Positions 2,456 to 23,887 of a stretch of 39,994 nt of DNA are shown here, piece after piece (within the stretch, counting starts at the first letter, position 1; each line of letters begins with the position of its first letter). The stretch lies in the IMG/VR virus record IMGVR_UViG_3300048998_000125, positions 1-39,994 of that record, one strand, 5' to 3'. Position numbers and translations under genes: made by a program. Under the pieces are notes generated by a model, which saw only the letters and a program-made list of their open reading frames with translations, had not been told where the DNA came from and ran no database searches. The stretch is from a virus.

Positions 2456-5361
2456 TGGCCGACGTGCCGAACTCGCACAAGGATCCGTACTGGTCGCAGC
2501 TTGCAAGCGTGACCGAGGACAAGGTCGGGATTCCGAAGGGACTGCTGCAGAGCATTCTCACGCGCGGCGAGCGGTCGAACAATGACCAGGTGAGCGACGC
2601 CGGCGCGCGTACGCCGTTCCAGATCATCCCGCAGACACGCAAAGCCGCGATCGACAAATGGGGTATTGACCCGTACCTGTCGCCAGAGAACGCCGCCGAG
2701 GTTGCTGGTCTCCTGCTGAAAGACTCGATCCAGCGCAACAAGGGCAACGTTGCCGAGGCCGTGGGCGAGTATGTCGGCGGCACCGATCGCAAAAACTGGG
2801 GCCCGGTCACCAAGTCCTACATCAACCGCGTGATGACCGGAATCAATACGCCGTCAATCGCCGCAACGTTGAACCAAGGCACGGGAACCGCCCAAGGCGG
2901 CACGCAATCGACCTTCGACAAGGTGCAGGCGCAGATGAAAGCGCAAGCGCCCCAAACCCCGCAAATCGCGGCGATCTACAGCGCTTACCAATCAGGGCAG
3001 ATGACGCCGGAAGAGGCCGCCGACTTCGAAAAGGATGTGAAGTCCGGTGCGCTGATGCTCCCGCGCGGCGCGACACTCAAGGCCGATGCGGGTTCCAGCG
3101 GTGGCGCGCCCGCTGCTGCAGCTGGTGCTGGCGGCTCTGAAATTCCCGACGCGGTGTTCAATGCCTACCGGTCCGGCGCCATGTCCACCGACGAGCGCCG
3201 CGAATTCGAAGCCGACCTGAAATCCGGCGCGATCAAGTTGTCGCCGGCGCAGCAGAACCCGGCAACATCGGCAAACGGCATTCCGCTGCCGAACGGGACG
3301 ACGTTCCAACCGAACGTGACGCCGGCCGATCCGACCCTGGTGCAAAAGGCGATCGGAGCCGGGGAGGCTGGTTTGACTGCTGTCACCGGCGGCACCACCG
3401 GCGCCCTGGGCATGGTAGGCGGCACGGTTGGCGGTCTCGTCGGGTCGGTCATGTCCGGCGACTTCGGCACGCCGCAGGGCGTCAAAAATGTAGAGCAGGC
3501 CGCGGCGGCCGGCGCCGACGCACTGACATATGCGCCGCGCACGGCGTCAGGGCAGGATCAGGCGCATGCGGTCGGGCAGGCCATGCAGCAGTTGATCCCG
3601 GTCGCGCCGCTGGCTGGTGAGGCTGCAATGATGGGCCGCGCCGGCGCGCCGGCCGTGATGGCAACGCAGGACGCCATTCGAGCAGCGCCGCAAGCCGTGG
3701 CTGATGCACTGGGTGCGGGTAAGCCTGCCGCCGTGGCAGCGCCGGCAGAGGCAGGTGGCGCGGCGGTAGCAGCGGCGGCTGTTCCAGCGATTGCGACGGA
3801 AGTCGTCGCGCCGGCCGCGCCAGCCCTGGCCGCGCCGGAACTCGCCCAAGTCGCAAAGAAAGCAGCAGACGGTGGCTTCGGAAGCCGCCGGGCCAAAGAG
3901 GTATTGGCCGGGGAGGCTGCGCCCGATCCGAAGGTGCTGGAAGCTGCAAAGCGCCTCGGCATTGACGAATACCTGCAGCCCGATCACGTCACCACGAATC
4001 AGGCCTATCGCGAGCTGGCGCAGGCCGTAAAGTCGATCCCAGGCTCGGAAGCGCGCGCCGCTGAAATGGTCGGTCTGGAAGCGGTTGCCAAGCGCGCCGA
4101 CCAGCTCATAGACGAGATCGGCGGCACGTCCGATCTTTCGACGCTCGATTCGAGCATCAAGGTGCGCCTGAACGAAACGCAGCGCAACCTGGACAAGAAG
4201 GCCGAGTCGCTCTACGACCAGGTGCGCCAAGCGATTCCAGCTTCCACGCCGGTGGCCGCGCCGAAGACTGTAGCGTTCTTGACCGGCCTGGCCGAAGACA
4301 TGGGCGGCGTGGCCAAGATGCCATCCGGCGAGCGCGCGCTGCTGCAATCCCTGAAGCCAGCCGACAACGCGCCGCTGACCTATGCGTTTCTGGATTTCAA
4401 GCGCAAGGAACTCGGCCAGGCGATGCGCAGCGGCTCGGGCGCGTTCAAGGATGCGGAGTCCGGACTGGTGAAAAAGCTGTATCGCACGCTGTCGGAAGAC
4501 CAGGAAGCGGTCGCGCAAGCGGCTGGCGCTGGCGAGCTATTCGGCGCGGCCAAGTCGGCGGTGCGCCAGCGCAAGGCGGTCGAAGACGATCTGGCGGCGC
4601 TGTTCGGTCGCAACCTGGATAAGTCCTTCGTCGGCTCCCTGTCCTCCAGTGTCAAGGCGCTGCCGGCAGGCGATCCCTCCGGATTCATCAAGCTGCTCAA
4701 AGCCGTGCCGGAAGACATGCGGCAGGACGTGGTGGCGTCCGGCCTGAACACCGCTTTCGGCAAGAACGCGAAAAACGGCAATCTCAATTTCAACAGCTAT
4801 GCGAACTGGTACGAGGGCATGCTGCGAAACAAGCAGTCCCACACCGCGCTCATGTCGAACCTGCCGCCCGGCGCGCGCAAGCAGTTGAGCGACCTTTACC
4901 GCGTATCCGATGGTGTGCGCCAAGCCACGCGCGAACGCATCACCACGGGCCGTATTCAGGCCGTGGCGAACGACATTCAGGGCGCCGACACCTTAATGGC
5001 AAATATTTACGGCCTGGCGCGCCGGGCGTCGGTCGGCTTGGCTGCCGAGGCCGTAACGACGCCAATGGGCGTTCCTGGTGCCGGCCTGGCTTCTGGGTTG
5101 ACGTCGGCGCTCACCAAAGGAAAAACGAACTACTTGCGCGCCGCGGACGCCCTGATCGCATCGCCAGAGTTCGCCAACCTGGTCAAGAACAGTGACAAAC
5201 CGAAAGCGAAAAAAGCCGCGGTGGCGCAGCTCGCGCACTCAGCCGCATTCAATAAATTCATGCGCGCGGTAGGCAAGCCTGCCGAAATGAAAGACCGTCA
5301 GCAATGGCTTGTCAACGCAATGGCCACCTCGGGCCAACAACCTCAGCAAAACAAAAAGTGA
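2455..5361 (+). CDS. Internal virion protein with N-terminal lytic transglycosylase (SLT) domain (gp16-position analogue)
   Basis: GLLQSILTRGERSNNDQVSDAGARTPFQIIPQTRKAAIDKWGIDPY matches the SLT catalytic E-S ... G-x-FQI signature. Long Ala/Pro/Gly low-complexity linkers; 968 aa. Confidence 0.8.
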   Translation: MADVPNSHKDPYWSQLASVTEDKVGIPKGLLQSILTRGERSNNDQVSDAGARTPFQIIPQTRKAAIDKWGIDPYLSPENAAEVAGLLLKDSIQRNKGNVAEAVGEYVGGTDRKNWGPVTKSYINRVMTGINTPSIAATLNQGTGTAQGGTQSTFDKVQAQMKAQAPQTPQIAAIYSAYQSGQMTPEEAADFEKDVKSGALMLPRGATLKADAGSSGGAPAAAAGAGGSEIPDAVFNAYRSGAMSTDERREFEADLKSGAIKLSPAQQNPATSANGIPLPNGTTFQPNVTPADPTLVQKAIGAGEAGLTAVTGGTTGALGMVGGTVGGLVGSVMSGDFGTPQGVKNVEQAAAAGADALTYAPRTASGQDQAHAVGQAMQQLIPVAPLAGEAAMMGRAGAPAVMATQDAIRAAPQAVADALGAGKPAAVAAPAEAGGAAVAAAAVPAIATEVVAPAAPALAAPELAQVAKKAADGGFGSRRAKEVLAGEAAPDPKVLEAAKRLGIDEYLQPDHVTTNQAYRELAQAVKSIPGSEARAAEMVGLEAVAKRADQLIDEIGGTSDLSTLDSSIKVRLNETQRNLDKKAESLYDQVRQAIPASTPVAAPKTVAFLTGLAEDMGGVAKMPSGERALLQSLKPADNAPLTYAFLDFKRKELGQAMRSGSGAFKDAESGLVKKLYRTLSEDQEAVAQAAGAGELFGAAKSAVRQRKAVEDDLAALFGRNLDKSFVGSLSSSVKALPAGDPSGFIKLLKAVPEDMRQDVVASGLNTAFGKNAKNGNLNFNSYANWYEGMLRNKQSHTALMSNLPPGARKQLSDLYRVSDGVRQATRERITTGRIQAVANDIQGADTLMANIYGLARRASVGLAAEAVTTPMGVPGAGLASGLTSALTKGKTNYLRAADALIASPEFANLVKNSDKPKAKKAAVAQLAHSAAFNKFMRAVGKPAEMKDRQQWLVNAMATSGQQPQQNKK

Positions 5362-18465: not shown

Positions 18466-18816
18466 TTATGCTGATTTGAGGCTTTCGCGCAGTAGGCGCA
18501 GCCAGGTGTTGCGCTGTTCGGTCCGCGCGACTTCCTCGGCGTGCTGCTTGGTGAAGTAATCGATGTCGCGCTGCGCCTCGCCGATGCGCGCCTGCAGCCA
18601 TTGCTGGCCGGTCATCAGCACCGGCGGCGGGTAATGGCTGGCGTCACAGTCCATTGCGATGGTGTCGGATAGCTGATCGATCATGAACGCCTGGAACGGC
18701 GCGTCCATCGGGTCATCACGCATCGGGATGGTGGCGCCCATGGCTCGCGCGCACATCATGGCGAACTGTTCGAACGTCATTTCCGCTGTAATCCTTGCTG
18801 TGTATCCGGTTGCCAT
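18466..18816 (-). CDS. Hypothetical protein, 116 aa
   Basis: ATG 18816 lies 6 nt after GGGAG. Composition is normal and no motif was recognised. Confidence 0.6.
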   Translation of the reverse strand: MATGYTARITAEMTFEQFAMMCARAMGATIPMRDDPMDAPFQAFMIDQLSDTIAMDCDASHYPPPVLMTGQQWLQARIGEAQRDIDYFTKQHAEEVARTEQRNTWLRLLRESLKSA

Positions 18817-18907
18817 TCGTCGCTCCCTGGTTAAATTCGTTGACCGTCTTTCCGGCCTGTCATCCCGACTGTGCCTTTACGCCGAACTGTCTCGGGAATT
18901 CCCGGCG

Positions 18908-18994
18908 TGTTGGTGGCGTGGAATCGAACCAAACTCACGTCCGCCTATGTGCAACATCTGCATAAACTGCGCTCTACCCATGAGCTACACCAAC
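18908..18994 (-). ncRNA. tRNA-like element lacking an anticodon loop (tRNA mimic or decayed tRNA)
   Basis: The minus strand reads GTTGGTG TA GCTC ATGGGTA GAGC G ... GTTTGG TTCGATT CCACGC CACCAAC A. It has a perfect 7-bp acceptor stem, a canonical D-arm with U8 and GG, and a consensus T-loop. The anticodon arm is replaced by a ~10-bp helix (GUUUAUGCAG/UUGCA-CA-UAGGC) capped by an AUG triloop. No CCA is encoded. Confidence 0.6.
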
Positions 18995-19157
18995 AAGGCA
19001 GCGGGCCGGACGTTACCCCGGCGATGTGTTCACAGTCTGGCCTTTCGGCTCTCAGTTTCTGCTTGGCCACCTGCCTGCCTTTACCCGTTGTTTTCTGTGT
19101 CCGGGTATCCCACTGCGCGTGTCTCCGAATCTCCACGCCGCCGCTGCCTTGTTGGTG
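18988..19157. repeat. Perfect 17-bp long-range inverted repeat (arms 18988-19004 and 19141-19157, 136-nt spacer)
   Basis: CACCAACAAGGCAGCGG pairs with CCGCTGCCTTGTTGGTG. One arm contains the 5' acceptor strand of the tRNA-like element. Confidence 0.9.
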
Positions 19158-19282
19158 CCGGTCTTTCCCGGCTGTATAGACTTTGCCCGCTGACTGGTGG
19201 CTGCCAATGGCGCTGCGCCGTCTGTGCCTTTCTAACTTCCCGCCCTAGCATGTAGGCCGCACTTTGGGGATCGCTGAGTTAG

Positions 19283-19304
19283 CAAAATAAGGGAGCCGCC
19301 CTTA
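19283..19304 (-). terminator. Weak intrinsic terminator-like hairpin inside the non-coding gap
   Basis: The minus strand reads UAAGGG-CGGCU-CCCUUA followed by UUUUG. The stem is 6 bp and the U-tract is short. Confidence 0.35.
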
Positions 19305-19429
19305 CCGCCCTCTGCCTCGGAGAATCCTGCTCGCAACACTCTCCGCGGAAGGCCGGTCTCTCCCGGCTGTCACCCAATTGACAGGGTTTGTCCCCTTACG
19401 GGCTATGGCACTGAGTGCCAATGAAACCG

Positions 19430-19630
19430 CTATGCCGTTGCTTCGGATTTGCTGCAGGTCGGGAACGGCCAAGCCGCCGCGGGATTGAGCACCGTCTTGA
19501 CTCCGGGCTGCTCGTCTTCCGGCTGCGCGCTGCAGCTGATGTCGGCGGCCGGCTTGCGCGCATCCCCGTTCAGTTCGCTGCGCGGGTTGAAATTGGTCAT
19601 GCGGACGGTCTGTTTCTGGAGGTCGAACAT
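19430..19630 (-). CDS. Hypothetical 66-aa protein (possibly an N-terminal remnant)
   Basis: TGATG coupling to the upstream ORF. MFDLQKQTVRMTNFNPRSELNGDARKPAADISCS looks protein-like, but the C-terminal third (AAAWPFPTCSKSEATA) is less convincing. Confidence 0.4.
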   Translation of the reverse strand: MFDLQKQTVRMTNFNPRSELNGDARKPAADISCSAQPEDEQPGVKTVLNPAAAWPFPTCSKSEATA

Positions 19631-19923
19631 CAGGTGCTCCCTTCGGTGGTGGAAAACTCAATAAACGGTCGGCGGATAATCTGATTCAGCCGTGCAATCG
19701 CCTCGGGATCGCGGTCGAACTCGGCGCGGGATTTCACCTCGCACAGCGTGCGCACCACGTGCACCGCCGACGGTTCGTCCTTGACCTGCAGGAACCGCCA
19801 GAACAGCGGATCGCGGCAGCGGAGGGCAACCCAGTCGACAGGCGCGTAATGGCCATGGTCAGCCGCCGATTTCTTCCCGGCGCTTCTTGGCCAGGTCGTA
19901 CAGCTCGTTTTGCGTCTCGACAT
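19630..19923 (-). CDS. Hypothetical protein, 97 aa
   Basis: The only in-frame start is ATG 19923, which overlaps the recT 3' end by 65 nt. The conserved-looking core is DPLFWRFLQVKDEPSAVHVVRTLCEVKSRAEFDRDPEAIARLNQII. Confidence 0.55.
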   Translation of the reverse strand: MSRRKTSCTTWPRSAGKKSAADHGHYAPVDWVALRCRDPLFWRFLQVKDEPSAVHVVRTLCEVKSRAEFDRDPEAIARLNQIIRRPFIEFSTTEGST

Positions 19924-22259: not shown

Positions 22260-23449
22260 AGCGGCTCCCCGAACATTTCCTCGCCCATGCTCATCATCTT
22301 TTCGAAGAGGAAGTTCTGCATATCGCGCGAGCAATCGCGGTATTTGTGCTTGAGGTGCAGGAACTCTTCGACCAGCACCGACGCCACTTGCTTGGTGCCG
22401 CCAAGATGGAAAGCGCGTTCGGCGATGTAGATGGTGTCGTTCTCAGCCAGCCCGAGGGTGCCTTCGCCAAGCGATTCAATAACCTTGATCGGATATGTGA
22501 TGTTGAAGCCGATCTTGGAGCAGAAAGTCTCTGCACGCTCCAGCGTTTTGCGCTGGACCTCGGTCAAAGTAATTTCGACCGGCGCGATTTTTTGCTTGGT
22601 CTTGTCTTCCCATACTTTGATGGCAGTCGGGTTCACTTTCGTGAGCCGGTCGCAGGTCAGCTCACCCACTACGCGGAGGAAAGTTTCGCTTGGGCTGACA
22701 CCGTATTGGTGAAAGTCGAGGACGTGTTCCTGATACGAATCGTCTGCCGTGAGAATCGATTTCAGGAACAGCACATCGTCGGACTTTGCCACTGCGGAGG
22801 CGATGCGCTCCAGCGGCTCCCATTGGTGTTTGATAGTCCGATCTTCGGTCAGGTCGAGCGTCTGATTATCGTTGTAGGTGTACATGCATTCGCGGGGCAT
22901 CTGCCCGACTCGCACACCGCGATAGAAGTACGCGCTGCCGCCGCGACGTCGAATCTCCATGCTGCCGCAGACCAGGTAAGGCTCGTCTTCGAGGATGTAT
23001 TTGTGGCGCTCGTAGAAGATTTCCTCGAACGGTTTCCCCACGATGACGATATCAGTCTGGTCTGGCATGCCTTCCGGCATCGACATCATCTTCTGCCCGG
23101 TTCCCGATTCGTCCATGCAGTTACAAGCGATTTCGCGATACGCCATCCACAAGTCCCATTGGGCGCCCAAGTGAGTGGTGAAGCCGATATCGACCGGCGC
23201 GGCATCGGCCACAGCCATGGTGACGAATTTGAATTCTTGTCCGCGCACCGCACCGACGCGCACGCCGAATTTGATTTCAGTGGTGCCGGAAAAAATCGTG
23301 ACTTCGTGGCCGGTGCGCAGCAGTACGGCGATGGCATATTTCAAGCCGGTGCCGAAAAAGCCGATAGGATTCTCGCCTTCCTTGACCGACACGCCGAACG
23401 TGGAAATAGCGGCGATGTCGATTTCGCCTTGGTTGGTGAAGACGATCAT
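22256..23449 (-). CDS. Hypothetical 397-aa early protein with N-terminal G-x-x-G-x-G-hK nucleotide-binding-like motif
   Basis: ATG 23449 forms an ATGA overlap (M16 of the track ORF). PIGFFGTGLKYAIAVLL resembles the GHKL ATP-lid motif. No other motif was recognised. Confidence 0.6.
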   Translation of the reverse strand: MIVFTNQGEIDIAAISTFGVSVKEGENPIGFFGTGLKYAIAVLLRTGHEVTIFSGTTEIKFGVRVGAVRGQEFKFVTMAVADAAPVDIGFTTHLGAQWDLWMAYREIACNCMDESGTGQKMMSMPEGMPDQTDIVIVGKPFEEIFYERHKYILEDEPYLVCGSMEIRRRGGSAYFYRGVRVGQMPRECMYTYNDNQTLDLTEDRTIKHQWEPLERIASAVAKSDDVLFLKSILTADDSYQEHVLDFHQYGVSPSETFLRVVGELTCDRLTKVNPTAIKVWEDKTKQKIAPVEITLTEVQRKTLERAETFCSKIGFNITYPIKVIESLGEGTLGLAENDTIYIAERAFHLGGTKQVASVLVEEFLHLKHKYRDCSRDMQNFLFEKMMSMGEEMFGEPL

Positions 23450-23763
23450 TGCTCGCCCTCCATGCTGGCGATTGCATCCAGCTCGGCGCGACAATTGATC
23501 GCCTTGTCGAGGTCCGCTTTCATCACTGCGAACAGTGCATCCTTGTCGCCGGCCAAGATGGCGCGCACCATCGGCACGCCGTCGCCGGTTTCGTAGCCGA
23601 CCATGTCAGCAGCCAGAAAGGCGGCTTCCTTGTCGGTCAGGCTCAGGCGCATGGCCGCTGCGTTGACTTCGGTCAGCTTGATGAGGTGTGCGTTTTCCTG
23701 GGCTGCGCTGGTGAACCGTGGTTCATGCCGGGGAAAACCAAATTGACGGTTAATGCTTTGCAT
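23446..23763 (-). CDS. First gene of the leftward early operon, 105 aa, unknown function
   Basis: ATG 23763 follows GGAAGAGAGGAAAAAA and lies ~39 nt downstream of the predicted PL start. Confidence 0.65.
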   Translation of the reverse strand: MQSINRQFGFPRHEPRFTSAAQENAHLIKLTEVNAAAMRLSLTDKEAAFLAADMVGYETGDGVPMVRAILAGDKDALFAVMKADLDKAINCRAELDAIASMEGEQ

Positions 23764-23779: not shown

Positions 23780-23859
23780 TTAGGTATGCCTAAGTTCGTT
23801 ACAGGTCTATGTTAGGCATGCCTAAGCATGAAGTCAAGAAATATTTTAGGCTTACCTAA
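23780..23859. promoter_or_regulatory. OL: three 14-bp palindromic operators TTAGG-N4-CCTAA
   Basis: TTAGGTATGCCTAA (23780-23793), TTAGGCATGCCTAA (23812-23825, perfect palindrome) and TTAGGCTTACCTAA (23846-23859). The same motif occurs three times between cI and cro. Confidence 0.8.
23809..23837 (-). promoter_or_regulatory. PL-like early leftward promoter
   Basis: The minus strand reads TTGACT (23837-23832), a 17-nt spacer, then TAACAT (23814-23809). The central operator fills the spacer and overlaps the -10. Confidence 0.7.
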
Positions 23860-23887
23860 AAATAGTTGGTTTCAGCGTGGAGAGGGT

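Follow-up and report, generated by a model that had tools for sequence, protein, structure and literature searches.

Recurrent hairpins and a leader-like RNA in a non-coding gap of a phage early operon

A structured non-coding gap in the early leftward operon

The viral record IMGVR_UViG_3300048998_000125 of IMG/VR, analysed here over 39,994 nucleotides (nt) that we call the window, carries in its early leftward operon a 613-nt stretch (19429–18817 on the minus, or operon, strand) between open reading frames (ORFs) of 66 and 116 amino acids (aa). An earlier note on this DNA had seen no credible ORF in the stretch. Indeed, none of the shadow ORFs on either strand matched a PHROG family, and no protein homology was found in any frame. 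The gap is a genuine non-coding stretch that is structured on the minus strand, and its minimum free energy (MFE) was lower than that of shuffled sequence (z = −3.99). Read 5′ to 3′ on this strand, it opens with a small hairpin, followed by the first copy of a 22-nt hairpin that we term motif A, by ~170 nt of structured sequence without assignment, and by a second motif A copy that adjoins a six-helix RNA, termed B-long; a degenerate tRNA and a third motif A copy complete the order. Outside the window, homology was found for discrete modules only, namely the three 22-nt motif A copies and the 19157–18988 RNA. The intervals 19351–19178, 19429–19373 and 18908–18863 had no relatives in ~5 Mb of fetched phage DNA, and blastn of the gap against cultured phages gave no match.

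The hairpins and repeats that the earlier note had read from the letters were recovered. Three GCCGG…CCGGC hairpins lie at 19367–19352, 19172–19157 and 19022–19005, with a degenerate fourth at 18857–18842 (all on the minus strand). Both hairpins with GNRA caps exist, CCC-GUAA-GGG at 19402–19393 (minus strand) and GCC-GAAA-GGC at 19049–19040. A CUGUCA/UGACAG hairpin spans 19384–19367 on the same strand, and a hairpin of 6 base pairs (bp), UGGCAC-UCA-GUGCCA, occupies 19420–19406 on the minus strand; the latter is read from the sequence, is present in both the MFE and the centroid fold, and had no homologue among the fetched loci. The repeated sequence modules form families D1 and D4. A weak internal terminator had also been proposed; a terminator scan of 18700–19700 found none, and neither promoter nor terminator was predicted on the minus strand within the gap.

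The same note had taken the gap for a candidate large undescribed RNA or, alternatively, a decayed tRNA array. The former holds in that the gap is non-coding, structured and without a match in Rfam 15, in keeping with the note's remark that it recognised no GOLLD, ROOL, RNase P, tmRNA or group I intron here: cmscan returned nothing at gathering or lax thresholds. GOLLD, ROOL and other curated large RNAs, as well as RNase P, tmRNA and group I introns, were rejected because none gave an Rfam match (window at gathering scores; 18600–19700 at E ≤ 10). That the whole 613 nt form one large ornate RNA of the GOLLD or ROOL kind, or else a functionless decayed tRNA array or pseudogene, is very improbable. 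The better-than-shuffled global fold and a tRNA-like remnant would suit it, and GOLLD and ROOL sit near tRNAs in phages. Against it, homology and conservation are modular rather than continuous, no Rfam family matches and no frame has protein homology, while a decayed array would fit the single tRNA-like element only; the purifying selection on, and covariation of, the modules are incompatible with junk.

Motif A is a covarying hairpin that forms on the sense strand

Motif A is a 22-nt hairpin that reads U-G-R-C-R, a 5-bp stem, a GARAGA loop and R. The starting point was an exact 18-mer pattern of the repeated GCCGG-GARAGA-CCGGC hairpin, scanned in IMG/VR; the matches listed were always in one orientation, with conserved flanks. 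The motif was then defined by three IMG/VR scans, each of which left one part free. With the stem free and flanks and loop fixed, a full 5-bp stem was present in 72 of 101 new matches, where chance predicts ~2%, and 29 stem sequences were seen. With the loop free, GAAAGA (78/108) and GAGAGA (22/108) prevailed. With the flanks free, the 5′ positions were T in 61, G in 75, R in 78, C in 76 and R in 70 of 79 matches, and the 3′ position was R in 68 of 79. Non-Watson-Crick stem pairs comprised 15 G.U and no A.C, which shows that the hairpin forms on the sense (GARAGA) strand. The stem covaries, with 44 different stem sequences among the instances gathered. A conserved upstream hairpin, H1, accompanied 67% of instances against a background of ~40%; given this moderate support, it was left out of the definition. 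A variant with the 7-nt loop GAACAGA was seen at two of the fetched loci (given here as L numbers), L010 and L477, in the latter just upstream of the closing helix P1 of B-long.

A covariance model, R1, was built from 66 diverse instances (alignment A1) and run with filters off over the whole 40-kb window. This gave exactly three significant matches, all in the gap and all on the operon strand. Copy 1 (19351–19372, minus strand; UGACA GCCGG GAGAGA CCGGC C) was matched at 19378–19345 with 27.3 bits (E = 1.7e-5); it carries the GAGAGA loop variant and has C instead of R as 3′ flank. Copy 2 (19156–19177, minus strand; AUACA GCCGG GAAAGA CCGGC A) was matched at 19175–19150 with 25.6 bits (E = 5.1e-5). 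Its 5′ flank, AUACA, is a variant common to L036 and L105, and it adjoins the 5′ strand of P1 without a spacer. The best match, 32.5 bits at 18868–18835 (E = 5.9e-7), was to copy 3 (18841–18862, minus strand; UGACA GGCCG GAAAGA CGGUC A), whose stem departs from the consensus by one compensatory and one G.U change, differs likewise from copies 1 and 2, and keeps the hairpin intact; this copy ends 24 nt before the ATG at 18816. The window copies thus have the 5′ flank, the 5-bp stem closed by G-C, the GARAGA hexaloop and the 3′ base that make up motif A.

When the window and 30 related loci were compared with Rfam 15 at gathering and lax thresholds, no family covered motif A or B-long. A full-text literature search returned neither the 14-mers of the motif A core nor a description of such a motif. 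Motif A and B-long therefore appear to be undescribed in the resources searched, with the 8,495 anonymous IMG/VR candidates of that catalogue (PMC10690425) lying outside the comparison.

Motif A precedes tRNAs, long helices and start codons in many phages

In the fetched sequence, motif A was present as 381 unique instances in at least 331 IMG/VR contigs. Among cultured phages, it occurs in many that infect Ralstonia, Vibrio and Erwinia, in mEp390, in the Stenotrophomonas phages Pokken and BUCT708/709, and in Pseudomonas Medea1, Cronobacter ESP2949-1, Acinetobacter Alexa, Bacteroides BS-TP2 and phages of cyanobacteria, without annotation in every record inspected. It is rare in E. coli genomes (9/5426). 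If motif A is what it appears to be, it ranks among the most widely distributed short RNA signals of phage genomes.

The position of the motif relative to tRNAs is narrow. An ARAGORN tRNA, of one of many isotypes, begins −1 to 11 nt downstream of 45 instances (mode 4–5 nt), and no opposite-strand tRNA lies within 300 nt of them. Of the 43 motifs directly 5′ of a tRNA, 35 precede the first tRNA of a run. Typically, 2–7 nt separate the motif from the tRNA, tRNA-like RNA or long closing helix that follows it; further contexts are tRNA-like RNAs missed by ARAGORN, long closing helices, ribosome-binding sites and intrinsic terminators, and many copies lie 20–30 nt upstream of start codons. A terminator was found within 45 nt downstream of 9% of instances vs 2% of controls. 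At loci with a GC content of 52% or less, 110 of 161 instances were not overlapped by any ORF of at least 90 aa, and the nearest ORFs flanking these 110 lay on the same strand by 88:21 upstream and 88:20 downstream. Motif A follows a CI-like repressor gene (PL region) in mEp390 and nine loci, and lies between a RinA/sigma-like gene and terminase in nine others. No protein family was recurrently adjacent to it, and no transposase, integrase, HUH protein or nuclease. Among 273 non-redundant instances, a boxA-like word was not enriched upstream. In the 60 nt upstream of the same instances, an anti-Shine-Dalgarno-like pyrimidine word (UCCUCC, CUCCU) was ~3- to 7-fold enriched.

A striking parallel to the window is found in Ralstonia phage Adzire, where the exonuclease gene is separated from the next gene by 540 nt that contain motif A three times. 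A long closing helix of ~20 bp comes after the first copy, and 38 nt separate the last one from the ATG. Motif A followed by a long helix also occurs in L036, in Vibrio phage 1.033.O and in mEp390.

Further RNAs were seen next to the motif. Vibrio phage 1.033.O (L412, MG592417) has a non-coding locus of ~1.1 kb in which motif A and a closing helix of 14 bp are accompanied by a promoter-like site and a terminator; the annotated tRNA-Gly that closes it, at 2989–3060, reads as a tRNA on the opposite strand (Rfam, 65 bits, on the plus strand of the locus). A conserved element of ~125 nt ends exactly at motif A in L011 (8002–8127), L019 (1827–1950), L045 (7092–7222) and L115 (355–478); its flanks are wholly unrelated in these four prophages, and it could be a small RNA gene in its own right. 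In L021 (4988–5075 and 5732–5805) and in L064, L094, L098, L117 and L120, the motif is followed by tRNA-like RNAs that ARAGORN does not call; these have acceptor and T arms, and their UCCA or ACCA ends are encoded. A hammerhead-like type-I element lies 5 nt after motif A in Acinetobacter phage vB_AbaP_Alexa (L127, MT375042; 2526–2580), and likewise in L005 (1010–1062); the element has a full core (CUGACGA, stem II, GAAA, stem III, GUC) and matches Rfam HH9 with 20.4 bits, below gathering. A third recurrent hairpin, GAAUGCGCAGGCUGAUGCGC, occurs in non-coding regions of GC-rich prophages adjoining motif A and B-long: at ~11460–11485 in L036, downstream of B-long in L438, L477 and L455, and upstream of a motif copy in L011. 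A DUF805b RNA (RF02914, 47.5 bits) lies at 3595–3629 of L118, on a contig with two motif A copies at unrelated positions.

Several identities for motif A were rejected. A sigma-70 promoter (TTGACA-17-TATAAT, with the hairpin as spacer) would have A at the second base of the −10 element, and only 17 of 111 do; there is no −10 enrichment, and tRNAs start 2–7 nt after the motif. An IS200/IS605-type (HUH) end is at odds with the lack of a recurrent neighbour family and with the strong co-orientation of the motif with genes and tRNAs. A hammerhead core needs CUGANGA, stem II and GAAA, whereas motif A reads UGRCR-stem-R with no GAAA after the stem, and twister and pistol ribozymes were ruled out on core sequence and topology. 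The hepatitis delta virus (HDV)-like theta ribozymes, which adjoin the 3′ ends of phage tRNAs and need a nested double pseudoknot (PMC10879173), resemble motif A as small conserved RNA elements tightly tied to phage tRNA genes. In contrast, motif A lies upstream of tRNA 5′ ends, and the hairpin upstream of it often has a loop of 3–6 nt with no room for P2 and P3; no P1/P2/P3 arrangement was found between an upstream tRNA and the motif, and no HDV-family Rfam match.

B-long is a conserved RNA with a covarying closing helix

The second motif A copy leads directly into B-long (18988–19157, minus strand), a six-helix RNA of ~170 nt. The perfect 17-bp long-range helix that the earlier note had picked out (19141–19157 with 18988–19004) is real, and it is P1, the covarying closing helix of this family. 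Alignments A2 and A3 gather 22–24 relatives, and the family measures ~150–185 nt. In A3, 91.7% of cells were paired vs 36–43% when the 3′ partners were slid, and 23 of 31 pairs showed compensatory changes, including all seven scored pairs of P1. Covariation in relatives, on which the earlier note had made its RNA candidate depend, is thus present in the motif A stem and in the B-long helices, P1 among them. The region 18986–19180 had an MFE z-score of −6.07, with none of 200 shuffles folding as well. Folded alone, the window B-long reached −86.5 kcal/mol; its MFE and centroid structures were the same and reproduced the family consensus structure. blastn of B-long gave 72–81% identity over 146–189 nt to L469, L568, L498 and L455, and no match among cultured phages.

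The invariant blocks of the family are GCGGCGUGG, AAAUCG, GACACGC, GGCAGGNAGGUGGCC and AACACAUC, all of them present in the window sequence as aligned in A2 and A3. The consensus includes AACACAUC-GCCGGGGUARCGUCCGGCC; P2 is GCGUG/CACGC, and P6 is GCCGG-GGUARCGU-CCGGC. In the window, P6 is the motif B hairpin GCCGG-GGUAACGU-CCGGC (19005–19022, minus strand), which is nearly invariant in the family; its exact 18-mer pattern was present in more than 119 IMG/VR contigs, a lower bound. P3 and P5 are the variable arms. The apical hairpin of P5, GCC-GAAA-GGC in the window (19040–19049, minus strand), is replaced in relatives by UUCG and GCAA caps: GCC-UUCG-GGC in L568, GCCC-GCAA-GGGC in L469 and GCCG-UUCG-CGGC in L438. 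B-long is a conserved, covarying RNA family.

In five enteric lambdoid prophages (L436, L463, L495, L506 and L512), B-long lies between boxA/boxB (nutL) and an arginine-rich N-like gene. The P1 of L436 is nearly the same as the closing stem of the lambda N-leader, GCUUUGGGGUG.../...CACCACCAAAGC, and L436 also has the ribosome-binding region of lambda and the start of N. This position and stem indicate that the B-long family provides a second kind of interior for the N-leader hairpin. In lambda, that hairpin is reportedly processed by RNase III, which controls N translation. Like B-long, the lambda N-leader has a long closing helix around an interior of ~100–150 nt; the two interiors are unrelated, and that of B-long is itself conserved. 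In GC-rich prophages and in the window, B-long precedes other genes, or a tRNA in L468. The window has the long stem 4.5 kb from PL, with motif A instead of nutL before it and no N-like gene after it: the ORF after the gap belongs to phrog_8905, and the first gene after the window PL (23446–23763) has no arginine-rich N-terminus. A promoter-like sequence, TTGACT-17-TAACAT, lies at 23780–23860, ~35 nt upstream of the first leftward gene; repeated TTAGGCATGCCTAA palindromes, operator-like, stand on both sides of it, and there is no nut-like leader.

The compact, very stable and conserved fold of B-long would also suit one or more trans-acting stable small RNAs, for instance RNAs that sequester host factors or anti-phage nucleases as decoys or sponges. 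In that case, motif A would be the handle that they have in common, and the tRNA-like element would act as a decoy against defence systems that target tRNAs; we regard this idea, for both the gap and the parts so assigned, as rather unlikely. It draws on the Vibrio phage 1.033.O locus, where a non-coding region has its own promoter-like site and terminator together with the motif, and on the ~125-nt element that ends in the motif amid unrelated flanks. Against it stand the many copies found shortly upstream of start codons or directly before ordinary tRNAs, the lack of any predicted promoter or terminator on the minus strand of the gap, and the fact that no target complementarity was identified.

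A degenerate tRNA follows B-long

Between B-long and the third motif A copy lies the tRNA-like element (18909–18994, minus strand) that the earlier note had pointed out. A 7-bp acceptor stem, a D arm and a T arm with the canonical GGUUCGAUUCC loop are recognisable; an anticodon arm, and with it a complete cloverleaf, is missing. A tRNA proper was ruled out. ARAGORN called neither tRNA nor tmRNA in the window, and the element folded alone was no more stable than shuffled sequence (z = −0.5). In 18600–19700, Rfam at E ≤ 10 gave only tRNA-Sec (18.2 bits, E = 1.3; gathering score 47), with no match to RF00005. A scan of IMG/VR for the 22-mer of its T arm and acceptor gave zero matches, and no close relatives were found. 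The 5′ side of its acceptor stem is shared with the 3′ strand of P1. In L468, the corresponding position after P1 is taken by a sequence that reads as a tRNA (tRNA-Arg by eye). We take the element to be a degenerate tRNA that may retain a signal of RNase P type.

The gap looks like an acquired cassette

The ORF at the upstream border (66 aa; 19430–19630, minus strand) is probably a truncated remnant of a longer gene. Its residues 1–31 resemble the N-terminus of a 202-aa ORF at L036:10270–10878 (42% identity, pairwise E = 7e-6). Past residue 31 no match was found, and the whole ORF matched no PHROG family and gave only a sub-threshold Pfam match. Because only these 31 N-terminal residues are protein-like, the non-functional stretch may start near 19537. 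Downstream of the gap lies the 116-aa gene (18466–18816, minus strand; phrog_8905, E = 1.1e-20), with a GGGAG Shine-Dalgarno sequence upstream of its ATG (18816) and motif A copy 3 in its 5′ untranslated region. Compared with homologues of 196–200 aa (P0002–P0004), the protein shares both the N and the C end. Since its N-terminus is intact, the gap is not its missing 5′ end, and this origin of the gap was ruled out. About 85 central residues present in the ~200-aa homologues are absent from the protein, an internal deletion.

The earlier note had allowed that homologues might show an intact gene in place of the gap. Instead, in the closest RecT relatives found (Pseudoduganella prophages, ~70–80% identity), genes are tightly packed after RecT, with no gap and no motif copy, which points to a lineage-specific acquisition rather than a frameshifted gene. 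A member of the Oxalobacteraceae, such as Pseudoduganella, is the likely host of this type of prophage. Similarity between contigs often breaks exactly at motif A, with 16 groups similar on the upstream side only and nine on the downstream side only. Judged from the sequence, the missing gap in relatives, the partial 66-aa ORF and the breaks at motif A together make the gap look like an acquired, mosaic cassette.

The same breaks, the relatives without the whole gap and the seemingly truncated 66-aa ORF would fit a second view, in which the modules are the boundaries of mobile or exchangeable cassettes and the 22-nt sequence acts as a DNA recombination hot spot. It would serve as short homology for phage recombinases, or as a hairpin site for an HUH- or tyrosine-type enzyme, and so shuffle tRNAs, small RNAs and genes. 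A precedent would be the mobile promoter/stem-loop cassettes (PeSLs) reported from T4-type phages. PeSLs resemble motif A in being conserved intergenic stem-loops at mosaic junctions; they carry an early promoter, whereas motif A is not a sigma-70 promoter. We consider a recombination role unlikely. The stem sequence of motif A varies while its structure is kept, with G.U and never A.C, which argues for selection on a folded sense-strand RNA and not on DNA homology; moreover, the motif is co-oriented with genes and tRNAs and has no transposase, integrase or HUH protein as a recurrent neighbour.

Motif A as a possible signal to the elongating polymerase

The shape and position of motif A invite comparison with antitermination sites. 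Lambda boxB likewise has a stem of 5 bp with a GNRA-like loop rich in purines and an A on the 3′ side, and it lies in early operons ahead of a long-range helix and of terminators. Motif A differs in its GARAGA hexaloop, its invariant 5′ UGRCR, the lack of boxA, the several copies per locus and its presence immediately 5′ of tRNAs in large lytic phages. The motif is conserved among phages that infect many hosts; boxB and N, by contrast, change together from one phage to the next. A lambda nut site proper was rejected, as no boxA (GCUCUUUA-like) precedes any window copy and no arginine-rich N follows. The put RNA of HK022 measures ~70 nt with two long irregular stems, putL lying right after PL and putR ~270 nt after PR (PMC9378689). 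It needs no phage protein and is, as motif A would be, a cis-acting hairpin of the nascent RNA in a lambdoid early operon; as an identity for motif A it was rejected, since size and position differ, there is no sequence resemblance and put is limited to few lambdoid phages.

Motif A could still be a nut- or put-like element in a wider sense, whose nascent RNA binds the elongating RNA polymerase directly or via Nus factors or a small N-like protein. Such an element would confer resistance to Rho and to hairpin terminators across long untranslated structured stretches, and it might also hold on to the 5′ strand of the closing helix that follows while the 3′ partner is still being made. We hold this to be possible though doubtful; it is a close rival of the RNA punctuation that we favour below. 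The boxB-like geometry speaks for it, as do the position of copy 2, which is that of boxB relative to an N-leader-type helix, the occurrence of the motif in the PL region after a CI-like repressor or between RinA/sigma-like gene and terminase, the 4.5-fold enrichment of terminators just downstream and the place at the head of tRNA runs. The conservation of the motif in phages with widely differing hosts suggests a partner that is present everywhere, such as RNA polymerase. This reading also accounts better than punctuation does for the invariant loop, for a shape and position like those of boxB and for the enrichment before terminators. The missing upstream boxA word and the lack of a known partner argue against it; a processive modification would have no need of three copies in 600 nt, and mEp390 seems, from its sequence, to carry put-like hairpins of its own just downstream of PL. 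In the window, the gene that comes first after PL does not encode an arginine-rich N-like protein, and N proteins diverge fast, whereas the motif A loop is invariant.

Proposed RNA punctuation of the early operon

The modules of the gap exist, recur widely and covary; they are strand-specific and intergenic, and their spacing from tRNA 5′ ends and closing helices is short and fixed. They probably show the points at which the long early transcript is cleaved, shielded or allowed to elongate further. In the reading that we favour, with a probability of roughly 40%, the gap is transcribed as part of the early leftward operon, into which it was inserted, and its cis-acting RNA modules form a non-coding cassette that works as RNA punctuation. 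By likeness to the lambda N-leader stem, the long closing helix would be a site for a double-strand nuclease of RNase III type, and the tRNA-like element might be a site of RNase P/Z type. As the motif A hairpins sit directly 5′ of these putative cut sites, the upstream RNA would end in a compact hairpin with a tail of a few nt. The downstream mRNA would, after cleavage, start with a motif A hairpin, which a conserved factor probably recognises. The outcome would be an early transcript that is split, with the stability and translation of the flanking genes set accordingly.

Several points weigh against RNA punctuation. The nucleases, the end-protecting role and the regulatory effect are all things that we infer. 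If the hairpin only protected RNA ends, its GARAGA loop and UGRCR flank would not have to be invariant. About 9% of copies lie just before an intrinsic terminator, where end protection would be redundant, and others, as in L184, stand so near an apparent promoter that no upstream RNA is there to be protected. In the gap itself, the tRNA-like element is not predicted to be stable and has to compete, through its acceptor strand, with a far stronger P1, the interval 19351–19178 is not accounted for, and with no N-like gene after the window B-long the analogy to lambda is merely positional.

Structured elements within polycistronic transcripts have parallels in mitochondrial tRNA punctuation and t-elements and in the intercistronic RNase III hairpins of T7. 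There, the elements define cleavage points and a hairpin is left at the new 3′ end; here, cleavage would be assigned from sequence, and an extra sequence-conserved hairpin stands 2–7 nt upstream of the tRNA or helix. The modules of the gap belong to the cis-acting leader and intercistronic RNA elements of phages, and the closest known counterparts are the lambda N-leader for B-long and boxB for motif A. We tentatively suggest a broader possibility, namely that motif A is a hitherto overlooked, universally portable signal of tailed phages. A conserved machine of the host would read it, be it RNA polymerase together with Nus factors or an enzyme that processes RNA ends, and phages would set it before every structured RNA unit, whether tRNA, tRNA-like RNA, leader hairpin or ribozyme, for its transcription, folding or release; B-long would then be a new class of leader RNA able to replace the N-leader.

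The models of motif A and B-long can improve the annotation of phage genomes, and both RNAs may supply compact insulator or processing parts for synthetic operons. In many prophages, the classical N-leader position is filled by an alternative and much more conserved RNA, which makes the regulation of N-type antiterminators testable in a new system. The fixed place of motif A before tRNAs and long helices gives a handle on how phages express, process and insulate tRNAs and further non-coding RNAs inside polycistronic operons, and the motif may reveal a host factor that many phages exploit.

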